Source of the DNA: a virus
Length of the DNA stretch: 41,208 nt
UHGV virus genome: UHGV-0041851
Reading direction: 5' to 3' (one strand)
A model generated the notes under the pieces. The model was given only the letters and a program-made list of their open reading frames with translations, was not told where the DNA came from and ran no database searches. The translations under genes were made by a program, and so were the position numbers. Shown one piece after another: positions 1 to 41,208 of this stretch. Within the stretch, counting starts at the first letter, position 1; each line of letters starts with the position of its first letter.

Positions 1-55
1 TACGGTAAGCTGAATATGGAGTTCTGAGCCTTCCCACCATGATCGGGGAAGACCC
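1..55. repeat. Terminal inverted repeat, left copy (exact reverse complement of 41154-41208)
   Basis: Reverse complement of the last 55 nt of the window equals the first 55 nt exactly; identity stops at nt 56. Confidence 0.9.
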
Positions 56-88
56 ATAAATGAACAGTATTATTGAGGTGGAAACGCT

Positions 89-3033: not shown

Positions 3034-4227
3034 GTGACCTGGGACGATCACAAGAAGAATTTTGCTCGCCTGGCGCGAGATGGTGGTTACACCATCGCAC
3101 AGTATGCCGCCGAGTTTAATCTTAACCCTAATACCGCACGTCGTTATCTCCGTGCCTTCAAAGAAGACACCAGGACTGCGGACAGCCGCAAGCCAAATAA
3201 GCCAGTCAGGAAGCCACTAAAAGGCATGATCATTGATCACTCTAATGATCAACATGCAGGTGATCATATTGCGGCTGAAATAGCGGAAAAACAGAGAGTT
3301 AATGCCGTTGTCAGTGCCGCAGTCGAGAATGCGAAGCGCCAAAATAAGCGCATAAATGATCGTTCAGATGATCATGACGTGATCACCCGCGCCCACCGGA
3401 CCTTACGTGATCGTCTGGAACGCGACACCCTGGATGATGATGGTGAACGCTTTGAATTCGAAGCTGGCGATTACCTGATAGATAACGTTGAAGCGCGGAA
3501 GGCCGCGCGCGCTATGTTGCGTCGGTCCGGGGCCGATGTTCTGGAAACCACTCTTCTTGAAAAGTCTCTTTCTCATCTCCTTATGCTGGAGAACGCCAGG
3601 GATACGTGTATTCGCCTGGTGCAGGAAATGCGCGATCAGCAAAAAGACGATGATGGAGGTACTCCGCCTGAATACCGTATCGCGAGCATGCTAAACAGCT
3701 GTTCCGCGCAGATAAGCAGTCTGATCAACACCATTTACAGCATCCGGAATAACTATCGAAAAGAAAGCCGGGAGGCGGAAAAGCACGCTTTGTCTATGGG
3801 GCAAGCTGGCATTGTTAAGCTGGCATACGAACGAAAGCGTGAAAATAACTGGTCAGTGCTGGAAGCAGCTGAATTCATCGAGGCGCATGGTGGGAAAGTT
3901 CCGCCCCTGATGCTGGAGCAAATCAAAGCCGATCTGCGTGCTCCTAAGACCAATACCGATGATGAGGAAAGGCAAACAGCCGTCGGTGGCCCTTCTCTTG
4001 AAGATCTGGACAAAGTTGCGCGAGAACGGGCCGCCAACCGCCGCGCCGATGCCGCATTGTGGATTGAGCAGCGTAGGGAAGAAATCGCCGATATCGTTGA
4101 TACAGGCGGTTATGGAGATGTTGATACTGAAGGTGTATCAAACGACCCATGGCTGGAACAAGACCTGGACGAAGACGAGGAGGAAGACGAAGAAGTTACC
4201 CGCAAGCTATACGGGGATGATGATTAA
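3034..4227 (+). CDS. pacA: PacA, terminase pac-recognition subunit
   Basis: 397-aa ORF (GTG start) [28 protein letters not shown]...; acidic C-terminal tail; contains the GATC-rich pac site. Confidence 0.9.
3225..3412 (+). other. pac packaging site (clustered GATC-containing hexamers)
   Basis: Two clusters of TGATCA/G-type elements inside pacA: four at 3226-3268 and three or four at 3357-3412, matching the known architecture of P1 pac. Confidence 0.8.
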
Positions 4228-6272: not shown

Positions 6273-7387
6273 GAACGTCATTAGTCACCCGTGAAGAGAT
6301 GATCGAGGCAATTGAACAGCACACTGCCTGTATCAGTACCAGGGATATACCAGGCGTTATTGCCAATTACTTCATGATCACCAAACAACTTTACCGGAGA
6401 AAGGACAAGAACGCGGTTCACCGTATCCTGTTGTCTGATATCCGCGAATACCTGCTCGAACAGGGTCATCTGAATTACGCAACCGCCGCAGCCGAAGCAC
6501 GCAAGGAGGCACACAGAATGAAAGCAACTAACGTTAAATCAGAAAAAATTCATGCACCTTCAGTTCAAGAATCGGAGCTGGTGGTTGTTCAGAATCAGTC
6601 TGATGAAATTCCCGTTCTGGAATGGCAGGGAGTGCGTGTAGTGACAACCGAGACTCTTGCTAGAGGGTATGGGACAGAAACAATCCGTATTCGCCAAAAT
6701 CATCATGAGAACAAAGTACGCTTTGTTGAAGGGAAGCACTTTTTCAAAGTTGAAGGAGAATCATTGCGCGAGTTGAAGCACAGAGTAGCTTTAAACTACT
6801 CTGTAAAAATTGCTCGCAATGTTCGCTCACTCACCCTCTGGACAGAACGCGGCGCAGCCCGCCACGCTAAAATGCTCGAAACCGATCAGGCATGGGCATT
6901 CTTTGAAAAACTGGAAGACAGCTACTTCCGACAAAAAGAACAGCAACCGATCGCAATCCCCCAGACGCTTCCTGAAGCCCTACGCCTGGCTGCCGAACTG
7001 GCTGAACAAAAGCAACTTCTGGAACAGAAAGCCCACCAGCTAAATCAGCAGCTGGTGGCCGCCGCTCCTAAAGTCGATTTTGCCGACCGGGTATCAGTAG
7101 CTAAAGGGATCCTGATTGGGAATTTTGCAAAGGTTGTTGGACTTAAACAAAACGCGCTGTTTGTCTGGTTACGGGAGAACGGCATCCTGATAGCGTCCGG
7201 TGGACGTAAAAATGTGCCGTTCCAGCAGTACATCAACGCGGGGTATTTCACGGTGAAAGAAGTGGTGCTGGATGATGAAGATGGCTACCAGATACGGTTG
7301 ACGCCTCAATTAACGGGTAAAGGCCAGCAGTGGTTGACGCGTAAACTGCTCGATGCTGGCTTGTTAAAACCGGTGGCGGCTGAATAA
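6269..7387 (+). CDS. ant1: Antirepressor Ant1 (ORF6N-like central domain, KilA-C-like C-terminus); nested Ant2 from in-frame ATG at 6518
   Basis: 372 aa (about 42 kDa); in-frame ATG at codon 84 has a strong AAGGAGG Shine-Dalgarno and gives 289 aa (about 32 kDa), matching the reported 42/32-kDa Ant1/Ant2 pair; domain call is from motif recognition only. Confidence 0.7.
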   Translation: MRTSLVTREEMIEAIEQHTACISTRDIPGVIANYFMITKQLYRRKDKNAVHRILLSDIREYLLEQGHLNYATAAAEARKEAHRMKATNVKSEKIHAPSVQESELVVVQNQSDEIPVLEWQGVRVVTTETLARGYGTETIRIRQNHHENKVRFVEGKHFFKVEGESLRELKHRVALNYSVKIARNVRSLTLWTERGAARHAKMLETDQAWAFFEKLEDSYFRQKEQQPIAIPQTLPEALRLAAELAEQKQLLEQKAHQLNQQLVAAAPKVDFADRVSVAKGILIGNFAKVVGLKQNALFVWLRENGILIASGGRKNVPFQQYINAGYFTVKEVVLDDEDGYQIRLTPQLTGKGQQWLTRKLLDAGLLKPVAAE

Positions 7388-7419
7388 TGGAAGAATGCCC
7401 GGTTGATGCCGGGCATAAT

Positions 7420-8271
7420 TTATTGCGCGCTTTCGGGGTTGTCGTTTACTGGCTGCCCCTTCTTGGTTTTACGGCTGCGCGTAACTGATGCGGCTGACTT
7501 AACCTTTTTCTCTTCGCGAGTGATGGCAATTTGTTTTTTTACATTTTCAATATCTGCCAGGCGATATATTTTTGCTTGCGGCCAGCGGTCGCAGATGATC
7601 GGTTCTATGGAGTCATAAAGGCTAAATTTTGCTTTTTCGAATTCACCGTTGATGATAATTCCATCACGGAGAGTTTCATCGCAGATAAACACGCCACACA
7701 GTGGCACATGGTAACTAACTGATTTACCATCATTGTAGTTAGGGCTACTGGAAATGTAGTGGACGCGCAGCATTGTTTCGCTAAAGCCGTGTACGCGCAT
7801 ACGGAATTTTTCATCCTCCGGGTACTGCTTCATTAGCTCTTTTGTTGCTTCTAGGTTCTCTATGTATTTCGCACTGTGCTCATTGATCCCCGCGCTTTTT
7901 TGGATGCGAATGTCCTTATCAATCAGATGAATAATGCGGCCAGCGGTCATGTTGACGCTGTTCACAGCTTCTGTCTGATAAGTTGTAACCTTACGCACAC
8001 CGCGAAGGATGTTAGGCACTGGATATAAAATAGTCTTTGGGATATTGAGGTCTGGGTACTGTTCCAGTTCCCGCGCCATTAAAGTCCATTTATCAATTTC
8101 AGCCTGAATGCTGTCAGTTTCTTTGAACGGTAGAACGACAACCGGGCGTACAGGACGACCGTCGCTGGCTGTATCAACGTGTTGGGCGCGTGCAACAGCT
8201 TTTTTTAGAAAGAGATCCCTGAAGCTGACGAACTCCTGGTACAGTTGTTCGCCGTAGACATAATTTATCAT
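7420..8271 (-). CDS. c1: C1 repressor of lysis
   Basis: 283-aa ORF of the length reported for P1 C1; flanked upstream by coi and operator-like sites; convergent with ant. Confidence 0.9.
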   Translation of the reverse strand: MINYVYGEQLYQEFVSFRDLFLKKAVARAQHVDTASDGRPVRPVVVLPFKETDSIQAEIDKWTLMARELEQYPDLNIPKTILYPVPNILRGVRKVTTYQTEAVNSVNMTAGRIIHLIDKDIRIQKSAGINEHSAKYIENLEATKELMKQYPEDEKFRMRVHGFSETMLRVHYISSSPNYNDGKSVSYHVPLCGVFICDETLRDGIIINGEFEKAKFSLYDSIEPIICDRWPQAKIYRLADIENVKKQIAITREEKKVKSAASVTRSRKTKKGQPVNDNPESAQ

Positions 8272-8365
8272 TGATCCTCCTCCAGAATTGACATGGTCAA
8301 TAACGCCCGGCTGAGAAAACCGGTCATTACTGACCTATATTATAGAGGGATCAAACAAAAATAAT

Positions 8366-8382
8366 AGATTTATTAGTGCATT
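8366..8382 (-). promoter_or_regulatory. C1 operator-like site between coi and c1
   Basis: Minus-strand AATGCACTAATAAATCT, an ATTGCACTAATAAATCT-type operator variant, overlapping the coi stop. Confidence 0.5.
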
Positions 8383-8591
8383 TATTGTGAGTCTAACTGG
8401 TTAGTTGCCATGAGATATTCGATTGTGTCAGTGAGGTCATCCAAGTCGTCTTGGGTGATGCGGTACTCCTGATTGGATATCTTTGAGTAGTGTTCAGCAA
8501 TGGCGCGGGCAGCGTCGGTTTCGGCAGGGTCTACAGATAAAGCGTTAGAGCAATGTCTAACGTCGTCGATGGTTGGTTGAATGAAAGCCAT
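8382..8591 (-). CDS. coi: Coi, C1 inactivator
   Basis: 69-aa ORF immediately upstream of c1 on the same strand, matching P1 coi size and position. Confidence 0.8.
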   Translation of the reverse strand: MAFIQPTIDDVRHCSNALSVDPAETDAARAIAEHYSKISNQEYRITQDDLDDLTDTIEYLMATNQLDSQ

Positions 8592-38784: not shown

Positions 38785-39048
38785 TTACCTATTCAACCGA
38801 CTTTTGGAACCTTCAATAATAAGCCTGCTATTGGCGCTGAAAATAAGAACCATGCAGCTCTGAAGGCTTTCATTCATGTCCTTATATTCCGCGAGATACA
38901 TGCCAATAAAGCCAGCAAGTACGGCGGAAATACATTCGGCCAGCAATTTCTTGCATGAAGACTCGTAACGGTTTTCACATAGCCCACTCAAATACGAATA
39001 CACCCCACCAAGAAGGGATAACATCACGATATGTACATAAAATGTCAT
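38785..39048 (-). CDS. Small membrane protein (holin-like), first gene of the lyd/dar transcription unit
   Basis: 87-aa ORF with two hydrophobic segments, upstream of lydA. Confidence 0.4.
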   Translation of the reverse strand: MTFYVHIVMLSLLGGVYSYLSGLCENRYESSCKKLLAECISAVLAGFIGMYLAEYKDMNESLQSCMVLIFSANSRLIIEGSKSRLNR

Positions 39049-39175
39049 TTTTTACCTATACAACAGTAAGTTGAACAACATTTGAGAACGGTATGCACTT
39101 TGTGATTTCCACACACACTGGTTTTGTTAATTAAAACCTGTAGCTTGCAATAAATAACGATAGTGGGCAGAAAAT

Positions 39176-39361
39176 ATGCTAATAGGCTATGTACGCATAT
39201 AGACAAATGAACAAAACACAGCTATGCAGTGAAAAGCACTTGAAAGCGCAGGATGTGAGCTAATTTTTGCGAATAAGGCGAGCAGCAAAAAAGCTGGGCA
39301 CCCTGGGTTAAAAAAGGTTCTGCGTATGCTTTCCAGAGGTGATACCCTAGTCTCGGACTAG
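39176..39361 (+). pseudogene. Decayed N-terminal fragment of a second serine DNA invertase gene
   Basis: Translation MLIGYVRI*TNEQNTAMQ*KALESAGCELIFANKASSKKAGHPGLKKVLRMLSRGDTLVSD* parallels the N-terminus of the intact invertase (IGYIRVSTNDQNTDLQRNALNCAGCELIFEDK..PGLKKLLRTLSEGDTLV) but has two in-frame stops and is truncated. Confidence 0.7.
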
Positions 39362-39363
39362 GG
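39345..39363. repeat. Perfect 19-bp palindrome at the truncation point of the invertase pseudogene
   Basis: CCCTAGTC-TCG-GACTAGGG, 8-bp arms with a 3-bp spacer. Confidence 0.8.
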
Positions 39364-39483
39364 ACAACATTTCGAGAACAGTTTTCATTAGCGGTCAGCA
39401 GGCGCTAGATACATCGAATTGATGTGCCGCGCGATAAATGTACCTATTCTATCAAGATAAATTACACCGACGCGGCATTAGAA

Positions 39484-40056
39484 TTACAGCTCAGATTGAG
39501 TTTGGCGCTTCTCTACAGGATGATAACGATAAATCGTCGATACACCGATATCGTAAATAATTGCCAACTGTTTCCTGCTGTAGCCATTTTCGATCAACCT
39601 CGCTATTTGCTCATGTTGTTCTTTTGTCAACTTCGGGCGACGTCCGCCAATGCGTCCCTGTTCGCGTGCAGCTGCCAGTCCGGCCAGTGTTCTCTCAACA
39701 ATTAATTCACGTTCCATTTCTGCTAAAGCACCCATGACATGAAAAAAGAAACGCCCCATGGGTGTTGATGTGTCAATACTGTCTGTCAGACTACGGAAAT
39801 TAACACCTTTTTCCCGCAACTCCTCTATAAGCGTGATAAGGTGTTTCATACTTCTGCCAAGCCTATCCAGCTTCCAGACAACCAGCGTATCTCCTTCTGA
39901 TAACGTTCTGAGCAGCTTTTTCAAGCCTGGTCTGGCTGACTTTGTTCCGCTTATTTTATCTTCAAAAATCAGTTCACATCCTGCGCAGTTCAGTGCATTT
40001 CTTTGTAAATCTGTGTTTTGGTCATTTGTTGACACACGAATGTAGCCAATTTGCAT
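39484..40056 (-). CDS. cin: Serine DNA invertase (Cin/Gin/Hin/Min family)
   Basis: 190 aa from the ATG at 40056 (AGAGG Shine-Dalgarno); catalytic N-terminus IGYIRVSTNDQ, VWKLDRLGRS and C-terminal HTH; adjacent to the tail-fibre cassettes. Confidence 0.85.
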   Translation of the reverse strand: MQIGYIRVSTNDQNTDLQRNALNCAGCELIFEDKISGTKSARPGLKKLLRTLSEGDTLVVWKLDRLGRSMKHLITLIEELREKGVNFRSLTDSIDTSTPMGRFFFHVMGALAEMERELIVERTLAGLAAAREQGRIGGRRPKLTKEQHEQIARLIENGYSRKQLAIIYDIGVSTIYRYHPVEKRQTQSEL

Positions 40057-40116
40057 GAAAAACAACCTCTTTGTTTAGTTAAAAATACATCGTTGGTATA
40101 GGTAGGGATTAAGACT

Positions 40117-40312
40117 AAAACGTTGGTTTGGGGGAAGGCTCAGCATTGCCTGTTGGCGTACCTGTTCCGTGGCCCTCAGCCACTCCGCCAACGGGGTGGC
40201 TGAAATGTAACGGAGCAGCATTTTCTTCTGAAAAGTACCCAAATCTGGCAAAGGCTTACCCTACTAATAAATTGCCGGATTTACGCGGTGAATTTATTCG
40301 TGGCTGGGATGA
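40117..40312 (+). repeat. Conserved 5' block of tail-fibre cassette 1 (candidate crossover region)
   Basis: Near-identical to 40589-40792, including a 67-bp perfect identity (40188-40254 = 40660-40726) encoding TGWLKCNGAAFSSEKYPNLAK; begins with AAAACGTTGGTTT directly after a stop codon. Confidence 0.7.
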
Positions 40313-40589
40313 CGGACGTGGTGTGGATGCCGGGCGACAATTATTATCTTCACAGGGGGATGCAATAAGAAATATTGAGGGGTTCGCAGATGGCGGGATC
40401 GGCATGTCTTTTGATGCAATCAGAGGGGCTTTTTACGATGCAGGAACACGATCAGCGAGAATGCCGAATAACACAACTACTATAGACAAAACCGATGACC
40501 TTGGATTCGACGCCTCTCGTGTCGTGCCAACAGCTAATGAAAACCGTCCTCGTAATATTGCCTTTAATTATATCGTAAGGGCGGCATAA
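40128..40589 (+). CDS. Tail-fibre C-terminal tip cassette 1 (promoterless module)
   Basis: Frame is open from 40119; encodes PVPWPSATPPTGWLKCNGAAFSSEKYPNLAK..., resembling C-termini of lambda Stf / Mu-P1 S-type fibres, and ends with the conserved NIAFNYIVRAA. Confidence 0.7.
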   Translation: MGEGSALPVGVPVPWPSATPPTGWLKCNGAAFSSEKYPNLAKAYPTNKLPDLRGEFIRGWDDGRGVDAGRQLLSSQGDAIRNIEGFADGGIGMSFDAIRGAFYDAGTRSARMPNNTTTIDKTDDLGFDASRVVPTANENRPRNIAFNYIVRAA

Positions 40590-40792
40590 AAACGTTGGTT
40601 TAGGGGAAGGCTCGGCGCTGCCCGTTGGTGTGCCTGTTCCGTGGCCCTCCGCCACACCACCAACGGGGTGGCTGAAATGTAACGGAGCAGCATTTTCTTC
40701 TGAAAAGTACCCAAATCTGGCAAAGGTTTACCCAACGTTAAAATTACCTGATTTACGCGGTGAGTTTATCCGTGGTTGGGATGATTCGAGAG
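40589..40792 (+). repeat. Conserved 5' block of tail-fibre cassette 2
   Basis: Direct repeat of 40117-40312. Confidence 0.7.
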
Positions 40793-41103
40793 GGATTGAT
40801 ACAGGGCGTTCATTGCTAAGTGGTCAGACTGCAACATTTATTCGTACAGCTTTGCAGGATTATTACGGTGTCGATCTGACTACTAATGTCAAAGTAGGTA
40901 TCGCTTATGCTACTGCTGATTCTGTTATAACTGTTGGAAACCCTGCTAATCCTAAAGCAGGAGATAATAGCGATTATGTTCCAGCATCATCAGATAACTC
41001 CATAACAGGCACTCAAAGGACGGCAGAGGATAATTTTACCGGGGCATGGATATCAATGCGCCCCCGCAACGTTGCTTTTAATTACATTGTAAGGGCCACA
41101 TAA
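40630..41103 (+). CDS. Tail-fibre C-terminal tip cassette 2 (promoterless module)
   Basis: Frame is open from 40591; same conserved N-terminal block and C-terminal NVAFNYIVRAT, with a divergent middle region. Confidence 0.7.
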   Translation: MPVPWPSATPPTGWLKCNGAAFSSEKYPNLAKVYPTLKLPDLRGEFIRGWDDSRGIDTGRSLLSGQTATFIRTALQDYYGVDLTTNVKVGIAYATADSVITVGNPANPKAGDNSDYVPASSDNSITGTQRTAEDNFTGAWISMRPRNVAFNYIVRAT

Positions 41104-41153
41104 AAACGTTCCTTAAAAAGCTACGTGCCCAACCGTTGATGCTGTATAAATAA

Positions 41154-41208
41154 GGGTCTTCCCCGATCATGGTGGGAAGGCTCAGAACTCCATATTCAGC
41201 TTACCGTA
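41154..41208. repeat. Terminal inverted repeat, right copy
   Basis: Exact reverse complement of nt 1-55; contains GGGAAGGCTCAG, which also occurs at the start of cassette 1 (GGGAAGGCTCGG in cassette 2). Confidence 0.9.

Follow-up and report, generated by a model that had tools for sequence, protein, structure and literature searches.

The window, by which we mean the whole stretch of 41,208 nucleotides that was analysed, ends in a cluster of recombination-related features consisting of a serine DNA invertase gene, two tandem cassettes for tail-fibre 3' ends, a third and hybrid crossover site, and the terminus of an insertion sequence (IS) that recurs at the opposite end of the contig (Table 1). 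A match to the P1-like backbone begins at window position 56, and the source element is, on sequence grounds, a P1-like IncY phage-plasmid.

Table 1. Features of the invertase locus and of the two contig ends
Feature	Coordinates	Strand	Remarks
Terminus of ISL3-family IS (as at the right end)	1..55	-	exact reverse complement of 41154-41208; in humD LexA box
Pseudo-cin, 5'-end remnant of a cin-type invertase gene	39087..39352	+	in-frame stop at codon 9
Short inverted remnant of a cassette 3' end	39365..39400	-	left boundary of the Min-type substitution
Min-type serine DNA invertase gene	39484..40056	-	190 aa; transcribed away from the cassettes
Putative recombinational (Fis-dependent) enhancer homologue	39967..40038	-	nt 19-90 of the invertase gene
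Crossover site 1, invertase-proximal	40111..40136	+	AAGACTAAAACG TT GGTTTGGGGGAA
Cassette 1	40119..40589	+	156 codons + TAA; Collar domain, variable middle, RNIAFNYIVRAA end
Crossover site 2	40583..40608	+	GGCATAAAAACG TT GGTTTAGGGGAA; cassette 1 stop codon inside the left half
Cassette 2	40591..41103	+	170 codons + TAA; ends RNVAFNYIVRAT
Hybrid crossover site 3	41097..41122	+	CACATAAAAACG TT / CCTTAAAAAGCT
Upstream region of a dinI-like prophage gene	41111..41153	+	left part of LexA box, CTGT ATAAATAA, at 41142-41153
ISL3-family (ISKox3-like) IS terminus	41154..41208	+	inside the dinI-like LexA box; contig end

The invertase gene and its left flank

Invertases of the Din family are proteins of about 190 aa with an N-terminal resolvase domain, a nucleophilic serine at about residue 9-10 and a C-terminal HTH_7 domain. 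The gene adjoining the cassettes, already taken for a serine invertase in a sequence-only reading of the region, encodes a protein with Resolvase (2.1e-51) and HTH_7 (3.4e-15) domains in Pfam, whose N-terminus, MQIGYIRVSTNDQ, has Ser9 aligned with Gin. The protein shares 74% identity with P1 Cin over 186 aa and matches the Gin structures 4m6f and 3uj3 (E=3.9e-92 for 4m6f), and we assign it to the Din-family serine DNA invertases (Hin/Gin/Cin/Pin/Min). Exactly the same sequence is held in UniRef as Q05517_ECOLX ('DNA-invertase') and is present on at least 1000 contigs, and the identical protein, WP_001165547.1, was found in all relatives whose invertase gene was examined. The putative enhancer, its function assigned from homology, is identical at 58 of 72 nucleotides to the enhancer annotated in P1 cin.

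Beyond the invertase lies the pseudo-cin remnant, with 89.5% identity to P1 31570-31836, and the short inverted remnant of 36 nt, which is 81% complementary to 40525-40560. The P1 GenBank record places a cin remnant of p15B at nt 7147-7408 and the enhancer at 6463-6533. The window counterparts lie at 39087-39352 and about 39962-40032, with an offset constant within ~2 nt, so that order and spacing from cin remnant to invertase enhancer run collinear with p15B as given in that record. The window thereby holds a min gene reversed relative to cin together with a retained cin remnant on a P1-like backbone.

Cassettes and crossover sites

Crossover sites of the Din family are 26 bp long and consist of two imperfect 12-bp half-sites around a 2-bp centre. 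Both cassettes start at such a site, of the form [12 nt] TT GGTTT(G/A)GGGGAA, and the 41-kb window has two occurrences of the site motif ACSTTGGTTTRGGRGAA where chance would give 0.01. The sites at 40111-40136 and 40583-40608 fit both the published consensus quoted for Mu, P1, e14, p15B and S. boydii and the crossover sites of the EC958 prophage Phi2, TCCTCAATTACC TT GGTTTAGGAGAA and GAGAGATAAACG TT GGTTTGGGGGAA (PMC4134206), the second of which closely matches site 1. The outer half of site 1 is identical in every relative. Both complete sites of the 41-kb window and the hybrid site share one orientation.

The cassettes open directly after stop codons with the same block, as had been noticed from the letters alone: before cassette 1 the TAA at 40116-40118 is followed by AAC GTT GGT TTG, and before cassette 2 the TAA at 40587-40589 is followed by one base and then by AAC GTT GGT TTA. 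The block belongs to a 220-nt direct repeat with 85% identity (40117-40336 and 40589-40808), and the 67 bp of perfect identity claimed for it run exactly from 40188 to 40254 and from 40660 to 40726. The cassettes have C-termini of the described NIAFNYIVRA type (RNIAFNYIVRAA and RNVAFNYIVRAT), while their middles are unrelated. Tandem Repeats Finder gave no report, the middles of the cassettes being too diverged. The earlier count of about 155 codons per cassette has to be replaced by 156 and 170. Collar domains are detected in both (Pfam, 3e-15 in cassette 1 and 4e-15 in cassette 2), and the tail-fibre gene of phage SKA5 has a 3' end with 91.7% identity to cassette 1. No chaperone gene lies between these tandem units of ~0.5 kb.

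Open reading frames with TTG or GTG starts do occur here, and RefSeq annotates products of 153 aa and similar sizes in relatives, so the two frames could be taken for independent small 'phage tail protein' genes. However, the TTG and GTG 'starts' fall within the conserved block, with the TTG inside the crossover site and lacking an upstream ribosome-binding site or promoter-like element; no promoter-like site exceeded the shuffle expectation and none lay upstream of either cassette, in line with the earlier claim that the cassettes have no promoter or start of their own. Moreover, the plasmid pMTY1586_IncY reads the same sequence in frame from a constant fibre segment, and the EC958 paper warns of mis-annotation of such 3' fragments (PMC4134206). 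Independent genes are thus most improbable. Both window cassettes stand in silent orientation. Neither an inverted partner site nor a constant fibre segment was found anywhere on the 41-kb contig.

Complete loci and natural isomers in related plasmids

Five complete plasmids with an identical invertase and readable cassette maps were compared, and copies in the expressed position were identified by mapping sites directly on the loci. A sixth plasmid, pHeN100_02, is frameshift-ridden and has its invertase outside the examined stretch, and only the DNA behind its constant-segment site was used. The five relatives carry 6-9 cassettes on both strands and a constant fibre gene ending in TTCTTGATTACC TT, the junction with the following cassette encoding ...VLDYLGLGEGSALPV...; the number of crossover sites per close relative is 6-10. 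A tail-fibre assembly gene, itself within an invertible segment, is common to all cassettes. One of them, p64EVA-6, is 99.7% identical to window positions 39000-41110 and has five cassettes on one strand, the tail-fibre assembly gene and four cassettes on the other strand, the last of which is fused to a fibre gene of 2.4 kb. Its nine sites divide by strand into five and four, the four including the constant-segment junction, and the core AAACGTTGGTTT is present eight times, where chance would give 0.10. In this plasmid cassette 2 has a 1-nt deletion.

The same cassette types recur in the five relatives in differing order and orientation, and all breakpoints fall at sites. Copies of both window cassettes have been found behind the constant segment in other plasmids: the cassette 1 type is fused to it in frame in pMTY1586_IncY (450/465 nt), and cassette 2, which occurs on either strand among other plasmids, comes immediately after the constant-segment site of pHeN100_02 (498/507 nt), in a record whose frameshifts leave the frame unconfirmed. 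These natural isomers bear out the earlier view of silent, exchangeable fibre ends in a Min/p15B-like system, which is further matched by the collinearity with p15B; they come from the comparison of different plasmids, the window itself being one assembled sequence.

The conserved 5' blocks are 220-300 nt long, 78-93% identical and present in both orientations, and the G/A variant of the right half-site is not always linked to its cassette. RecA-dependent recombination between these blocks could therefore be imagined to have built the array and its various orders with no role for the invertase. However, the boundary of every cassette is a 26-bp site with a left half that forms part of the unit before it, and an intact Din-family invertase with a conserved putative enhancer always adjoins the array. 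Near-identical sites in E. coli EC958 prophage Phi2 invert at high frequency in culture, as inferred from alternative PacBio contigs (PMC4134206), and local conversion at crossover sites has been described for Cin, to go by a reference listed in the same paper. An origin through RecA alone is thus very unlikely, although RecA-dependent recombination between the conserved blocks could account for part of the relatives' rearrangements.

A hybrid site joined to prophage DNA

Two further expectations of the sequence-only reading, a third repeat start at the window edge and a constant S segment beyond the window end, did not survive. Of a third site only ...CACATAAAAACG TT is present, up to 41110, where the array match ends with AAAACGTT and all relatives cease matching; exactly at the central TT, CCTTAAAAAGCT and foreign DNA take the place of the expected right half GGTTTAGGGGAA. 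This hybrid site has its left half and its TT centre from the Min array, and its right half matches prophage DNA. In place of the S segment there follow a dinI-like promoter and an IS, and the array is therefore cut off from any inverted partner site on the contig. A copy of GGGAAGGCTCAG at 41174 was considered as the start of a third cassette and rejected as a chance match inside the end of the ISL3-family IS.

Window positions 41104-41153 (query positions 5-54) are 100% identical to a P2-like prophage of strain 23AR0998, in which the LexA box is intact (CTGTATAAATAAACAG) and is followed by a gene of the DinI family. At one and the same dinucleotide, the right half TT CCTTAAAAAGCT... adjoins three different left halves, namely in the window, in the P2-like prophage and in phi80-like prophages, and in the P2-like form the junction lies 62 nt from the start of that prophage's invertase. 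A dinI-like gene is not usual in P1-like plasmids, with only five Enterobacter plasmids matching at 81-86% identity. The junction between cassette 2 and the dinI-like sequence was not found by BLAST in PLSDB and the RefSeq complete E. coli genomes, nor by exact pattern in IMG/VR and GTDB representatives.

The most likely cause of the hybrid junction would be an exchange catalysed by an invertase at a secondary site, and we tentatively suggest, with somewhat less than even confidence, that the site was left by a Din-invertase reaction in which a Min site on a P1-like plasmid recombined with a secondary site before a prophage dinI-like gene. The junction could instead be an assembly chimera or an illegitimate join mediated by microhomology, with no site-specific recombination at 41110/41111. 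It is unique in the collections searched, the assembly is of the short-read style, with breaks in repeats, and the window and P2-like prophage forms of the junction have 7 bp (AAACGTT) in common. However, an overlap of 7-8 bases is much too short to lead a k-mer assembler astray (the repeats of the contig itself overlap by 55 nt), the switch to foreign DNA comes immediately behind the 2-bp centre of a crossover site, and in an independent closed chromosome the same foreign half meets an invertase-proximal half-site at the same dinucleotide. We consider a chimera or illegitimate join unlikely. The candidate forms of the secondary site are GCCCCAAAAACC TT CCTTAAAAAGCT and TTTTCTTAAACG TT CCTTAAAAAGCT, and the reciprocal junction of a hybrid-site exchange would read TTTTCTTAAACG TT GGTTTAGGGGAA.

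An insertion sequence in LexA operators

Elements of the ISL3 family are recognised by terminal inverted repeats, an ISL3 transposase and 8-bp target duplications. The 55-nt stretch found at both window ends, a probable ISL3-family terminus, matches the ends of annotated ISKox3-family elements, and one terminus only is present in the window. The limits of this terminus, GGGTCTTCCCC, follow from 8-bp target duplications at four loci that hold full copies. On the right the IS begins 43 nt beyond the hybrid junction and splits the dinI-like LexA box; on the left the remainder of the humD LexA box, ATAAATGA ACAG, occupies positions 56-67, with the humD ATG at 89. The same humD box is interrupted in five complete plasmids, and in every case examined the target is a CTGT-N8-ACAG (SOS-box) palindrome. 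A literature search of a limited collection returned no report that links ISKox3 with LexA boxes.

Comparison with known inversion systems

In p15B, reportedly with six crossover sites, the Min system resembles the window in its P1-related backbone, its Pin/Min-type invertase pointing away from the invertible DNA, and the cin remnant that lies past the invertase at the same spacing (by coordinates from the P1 record). Like the loci of the relatives, it has many short fibre 3' cassettes, each beginning at a crossover site, and more than two sites, in both orientations, that define overlapping invertible segments. It differs in that close relatives of the window have 6-10 sites and up to nine cassettes, whereas this contig holds the first two cassettes only and a third site hybrid with non-fibre DNA. 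Identity with p15B (X62121) is presumed on the strength of entries in the P1 record and of one publication. A reverse-oriented invertase of a P1-like plasmid is reported to be 98.5% identical to Min of p15B (PMC6906374).

P1 Cin and Mu Gin share with this system the recombinase family, 26-bp sites with a 2-bp centre, an enhancer (here putative) inside the recombinase gene and the purpose of swapping the 3' end of a fibre gene. However, P1 and Mu have two sites, one segment of 3-4 kb, two states and a chaperone gene per variable part, whereas here there are numerous cassettes of ~0.5 kb and one common tail-fibre assembly gene; P1 cin also reads towards its segment, while the window invertase reads away from the cassettes. 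A two-state C/G-segment switch was rejected for the tandem ~0.5-kb units without a chaperone gene and the 6-10 sites of the relatives. Similarly, e14 Pin with its P-segment and EC958 Phi2 have near-identical crossover sites and Collar-domain cassettes, but e14 and P2-like prophages such as EC958 Phi2 are chromosomal, single-segment, two-state switches. The R64 shufflon (Rci/sfx/pilV) follows the same logic of multiple inversions that swap the 3' ends of one constant gene, but uses the tyrosine recombinase Rci, asymmetric sfx sites and a pilus adhesin as target. Since the recombinase here is of the serine (Resolvase) type, an R64-type shufflon was rejected, and the two systems are analogous, not homologous.

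A probable Min-type multiple-inversion switch

Positions 39484-41110 very probably represent the invertase-proximal end of a Min-type multiple DNA-inversion system on a P1-like (IncY) phage-plasmid. How the complete locus would work is drawn from the relatives and from the established Hin/Gin/Cin mechanism. The constant 5' part of the tail-fibre gene S would end in the crossover site TTCTTGATTACC TT GGTTT(A/G)GGGGAA, behind which one in-frame cassette of 145-170 codons would supply the Collar, a variable and presumably receptor-facing middle and the RPRN(I/V)AFNYIVRA end. Further cassettes would lie downstream on the same strand and, on the opposite strand, beside the invertase gene, each opening with the same right half-site and closing with a stop codon that falls in the left half of the site that follows. 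The invertase, aided by Fis at the enhancer in its own 5' coding region, would pair two inverted sites, cleave at the central TT, rotate the strands and religate them. An inversion between two sites would place a different cassette behind the constant part, and successive overlapping inversions would shuffle the entire array. Catalytic activity, Fis dependence and an effect on host range are presumed for the locus.

This copy of the array is damaged or rearranged. Its two complete sites share one orientation and a constant segment is lacking, so the window copy may be unable to switch. The locus could even be a dead remnant in which the invertase and two cassettes were severed from the array and the constant fibre gene. 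This is consistent with the hybrid third site, with a 41-kb contig devoid of an inverted site or constant segment, with the IS copies at both contig ends, and with the degraded fibre or invertase regions documented in P1-like plasmids (PMC6906374). However, the window has an intact invertase gene that does not differ from the one in complete plasmids, both cassettes are open, unlike the p64EVA-6 copy of cassette 2, and the remaining locus could be on another contig of the same replicon, past the dinI-like gene. A dead remnant is a real possibility, though a doubtful one.

Significance

The finding changes little, since a Min-type system is already known, having been described in 1990-92 (Sandmeier, Iida, Meyer, Hiestand-Nauer, Arber 1990; Iida et al. 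1990; Sandmeier, Iida, Arber 1992). It is the textbook-era Min of p15B, common in P1-like E. coli phage-plasmids, and the invertase and both cassettes are already in many database records, letter for letter or nearly. By-products of modest interest are a crossover site joined to non-fibre DNA and an ISL3-family element inside LexA operators. An IS in SOS (LexA) operators would take genes such as humD and dinI out of SOS control. If the hybrid site does record an invertase reaction, serine invertases would occasionally splice unrelated replicons or modules at crossover sites, beyond flipping fibre cassettes, which would offer a concrete route for the horizontal exchange or loss of fibre modules among P1-like, P2-like and lambdoid phages. 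In these plasmids, what is annotated as short 'phage tail protein' genes is a set of silent cassettes rather than genes, and contig breaks and differences in order in this region are expected biology. The up to nine interchangeable tips of the relatives are relevant to host-range prediction for resistance-carrying phage-plasmids.

A multi-cassette tail-fibre switch of the Min type

The tail-fibre locus of the window is a member of the Min system, the multiple DNA-inversion system of plasmid p15B that was described more than 30 years ago and is already known. Its two cassettes begin directly after a stop codon with the same N-terminal block (NVGLGEGSALPV...), match the Phage Tail Collar domain (E about 4e-15) and share C-termini of the form RN(I/V)AFNYIVRA(A/T), with unrelated middles. 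As a direct repeat, their conserved 5′ block spans 220 nt at 85% identity, 40188-40254 and 40660-40726 share 67 bp of perfect identity, and the motif ACSTTGGTTTRGGRGAA occurs twice in the 41-kb window against 0.01 copies by chance. The shared start after a stop codon, the 67 bp of perfect identity, the similar C-termini and the differing middles had been named in the sequence-only reading, which is mostly correct, and are seen in the sequence. The reading also had the cassettes without promoters of their own, which agrees with promoter-like matches at or below shuffle expectation and none ahead of either cassette. The fibre gene of phage SKA5 has a 3′ end that is 91.7% identical to cassette 1.

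Features of the fibre locus in the window
Feature	Position	Strand	Description
cin 5′ remnant	39087-39352		in-frame stop at codon 9; 89.5% identity to P1
Serine invertase gene	39484-40056	-	190 aa; Resolvase E=2e-51, HTH_7 E=3e-15
Enhancer homologue	39967-40038		within the invertase gene (nt 19-90); 58/72 nt as in the annotated P1 enhancer
Cassette 1	40119-40589	+	156 codons plus TAA
Cassette 2	40591-41103	+	170 codons plus TAA

The view of the cassettes as silent, exchangeable fibre ends is supported by their occurrence behind the constant segment (the fixed 5′ part of the fibre gene) in other plasmids. Cassette 1 belongs to a 156-codon type that in pMTY1586_IncY continues the constant segment in frame, as part of an annotated full-length fibre protein (450/465 nt identical). 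Cassette 2, of the type designated 170T, lies directly behind the constant-segment site in pHeN100_02 (498/507 nt identical), a record with frameshifts resembling sequencing errors. These positions counter the database annotation of such fragments as independent 153-aa 'phage tail proteins', and the EC958 paper cautions against exactly this annotation of fibre 3′ fragments (PMC4134206).

Crossover sites and proposed mechanism

In every case the cassette start is a 26-bp site made up of 12 nt, TT and GGTTT(G/A)GGGGAA. The left half-site is AAGACTAAAACG beside the invertase gene and GGCATAAAAACG or CACATAAAAACG between cassettes, where it holds the stop codon of the preceding cassette, while at the end of the constant segment it is TTCTTGATTACC and is read in frame as ...VLDYLGLGEGSALPV.... 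The core AAACGTTGGTTT is found 8 times in a 14-kb stretch of p64EVA-6 against 0.10 expected by chance. The window sites conform to the published consensus for Mu, P1, e14, p15B and Shigella boydii, and the two sites of E. coli EC958 prophage Phi2, alternative orientations of which are separate PacBio contigs in the assembly, are almost identical to those of the window type (PMC4134206). Two complete sites are all that the window contains, and they point the same way; no inversion can take place within this contig.

In a complete locus, translation would most likely be limited to the cassette that immediately follows the constant segment, as each cassette ends in a stop codon of its own. The invertase would pair two inverted sites on supercoiled DNA, in a synapse that depends on Fis and the enhancer, a model taken from the established mechanism of Hin, Gin and Cin. 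It would then cut at the central TT, exchange strands and religate, so that the DNA between the paired sites flips and the fibre gene gains a new 3′ end in the form of a cassette from the opposite strand. The same topology would disfavour directly repeated sites, and therefore cassettes would be shuffled rather than deleted. Catalysis by the invertase, its Fis dependence and an effect on host range are inferred.

Cassette shuffling in related plasmids

The complete IncY plasmid p64EVA-6 is 99.7% identical to window positions 39000-41110. Its locus comprises the invertase gene followed by five cassettes on one strand and, on the opposite strand, a tail-fibre assembly gene (tfa) and three silent cassettes, then a tail-fibre gene of 2.4 kb that has the fourth cassette of that strand as its 3′ end. 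Cassette maps could be read in five complete plasmids with an identical invertase (WP_001165547.1). From the sixth, pHeN100_02, which has many frameshifts and an invertase gene outside the stretch analysed, only the DNA behind the constant-segment site was used. The five plasmids have in common cassette types of 145, 155, 156, 158, 161 and 168 codons and two of 170; order and orientation vary, with all junctions at sites. Anatomy, homologies and natural isomers are directly observed, and the earlier proposal of a switch of the Min/p15B type was right in kind, as relatives carry permuted and inverted cassette orders.

Cassette order from the invertase gene to the constant segment (+, silent orientation)
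Plasmid	Order
p64EVA-6	156+ 170T+ 145+ 170A+ 168+ / tfa- 155- 161- 158- 145-(expressed)
p2-S1-IND-02-A	145+ 170T+ 170A+ 155+ tfa+ / 168- 158- 156- 161-(expressed)
pYZMc17-1	170T+ 156+ 168+ / tfa- 155- 158- 145- 161- 170A-(expressed)

The single tfa gene is always attached to the 155-codon cassette (L001, the p64EVA-6 locus, 6278-7866; locus L009 11588-13176; L014, that of pMTY1586_IncY, 6864-8452) and lies tail-to-tail with the 168-codon cassette, which ends VRAD. This three-part module is inverted as a unit in some plasmids, and therefore the chaperone gene is not always co-oriented with the expressed fibre gene. Within the constant fibre part of p64EVA-6 there are four tandem 300-nt repeats of 72-90% identity (L001 9428-10627). 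Fibre gene length differs among plasmids (annotated CDSs of 1857 to 2898 nt), so shaft length varies and not the tip alone.

Some relatives' cassettes have a right half-site short of one G in its G-run (GGTTTAGGGAAG), resulting in a frameshift after a few codons (p64EVA-6, L001 4810-4835; locus L008 13600-13625 and 14585-14609). The p64EVA-6 copy of cassette 2, 506/507 nt identical to the window, has this loss, which could be a sequencing error or genuine inactivation.

The invertase gene and the P1/p15B setting

The original Min papers reportedly described six crossover sites and several fibre 3′ variants, with Pin/e14-type DNA said to be substituted into a P1-like backbone. The sole visible difference between Min of p15B and the present-day plasmids is the larger cassette set of the latter. 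From position 56 on, the window is a P1-like phage-plasmid backbone with humD, phd/doc, pac, cre, res/mod, darB, lyd and further genes. The invertase shares 74% identity with Cin of phage P1 and matches Gin, a protein of solved structure, at E=4e-92. It has exactly the sequence of UniRef entry Q05517_ECOLX ('DNA-invertase'), present on at least 1000 contigs.

Positions 39087-39400 hold the cin remnant, in which there is a second copy of the enhancer-like sequence, and then 36 nt left over from the 3′ end of an inverted cassette. The edge of a Pin/Min-type substitution in the P1 backbone is marked by these two remnants. According to notes in the P1 GenBank record, p15B has the equivalent cin remnant at nt 7147-7408 and a second enhancer-region copy at nt 6463-6533. 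The remnant-to-enhancer distance in the window agrees with these coordinates to about 2 nt, an agreement that requires an invertase reversed relative to cin, as it is in the window. A reverse-oriented invertase of the same kind, 98.5% identical to Min of p15B, has been reported from a P1-like plasmid (PMC6906374).

A hybrid crossover site at the window edge

A third repeat start and a constant fibre segment beyond the window end had also been expected, and neither is there. All relatives lose their match at 41110, after ...CACATAAAAACG TT, and the window has CCTTAAAAAGCT in place of the expected right half GGTTTAGGGGAA. The foreign segment is 41111-41153. It lies wholly within 41104-41153, a stretch with 100% identity to DNA upstream of a DinI-family gene in a P2-like prophage (strain 23AR0998), and it ends with the first 12 nt of the LexA box CTGTATAAATAA[ACAG] of that gene. 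From 41154 follows the terminus of an ISL3-family, ISKox3-like insertion sequence (IS), inside which a copy of GGGAAGGCTCAG at 41174, considered as a third cassette start, is a chance match.

Three contexts share the half-site CCTTAAAAAGCT together with the sequence downstream of it, and diverge only on the left of the central TT. The left half and centre are GCCCCAAAAACC TT in phi80-like prophages (9 loci), TTTTCTTAAACG TT in a P2-like prophage (whose own invertase gene starts 62 nt away), and CACATAAAAACG TT in the window (junctions at window 41097-41153; L004, the P2-like form, 3996-4054; locus L005 3998-4056). In the phi80-like form likeness to a crossover site is confined to the left half, and in the P2-like prophage the left half is its invertase-proximal half-site. 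In two independent derived contexts the break falls exactly at the exchange dinucleotide, which fits, but does not prove, an invertase reaction with a secondary site, and TT CCTTAAAAAGCT is possibly such a secondary (quasi) crossover site for TT-type invertases. Secondary-site events are described for Cin in works among the references listed in PMC4134206. The hybrid could also be a microhomology-driven join, as the partners have AAACGTT in common, or possibly an assembly chimera. The dinI-like gene is not a normal part of P1-like plasmids, and searches of PLSDB, complete RefSeq E. coli genomes, IMG/VR and GTDB representatives gave no match to the junction of cassette 2 with it.

The phi80-like prophages beside the same dinI-like gene come with an invertase and fibre segments of their own (L012, one such locus, 6030, 7491 and 8423). 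Their sites have TC/GA rather than TT as central dinucleotides, which would prevent cross-reaction of the two systems at the exchange step.

An insertion sequence in SOS-box-like targets

Positions 1-55 are the exact reverse complement of 41154-41208, with identity ending at 56. Both contig ends are therefore the same IS terminus, so the assembly broke in a repeat and at least two inverted IS copies flank the 41-kb segment. CTGT precedes the terminus by exactly 8 nt in all flanks examined, a position with a chance of 1 in 256 per flank. The sample comprised 8 flanks from one terminus and 5 from the other (loci with readable flanks from a one-genome-per-species scan, with L002 and L003 added from plasmids), together with the two ends of the window and the two sides of the pYJ4-b copy (window 1-67 and 41142-41208; L002, L003, L016-L025 and L031). 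Where both sides are present, the target is CTGT-N8-ACAG, the LexA/SOS-box motif, with N8 duplicated, as in ACTGT ATGCATAT - IS - ATGCATAT ACAGT.

The window copies split the operators of humD and the dinI-like gene, the left-hand one lying inside the humD LexA box (ATAAATGA ACAG at 56-67). This box is occupied by the ISKox3-like family in five complete P1-like plasmids. In the one of these that was examined, pYJ4-b (L031 1325-2660), the humD-box spacer is ATGAATAA as against ATAAATGA in the window, an allele difference that suggests independent insertions into the humD operator. Judged from these flanks, the ISKox3-like element appears to target palindromes resembling SOS operators, of which no report was found in the literature searched, with incomplete coverage. 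This apparently SOS-box-seeking IS and the hybrid crossover site are the only points of the locus that go beyond the textbook picture.
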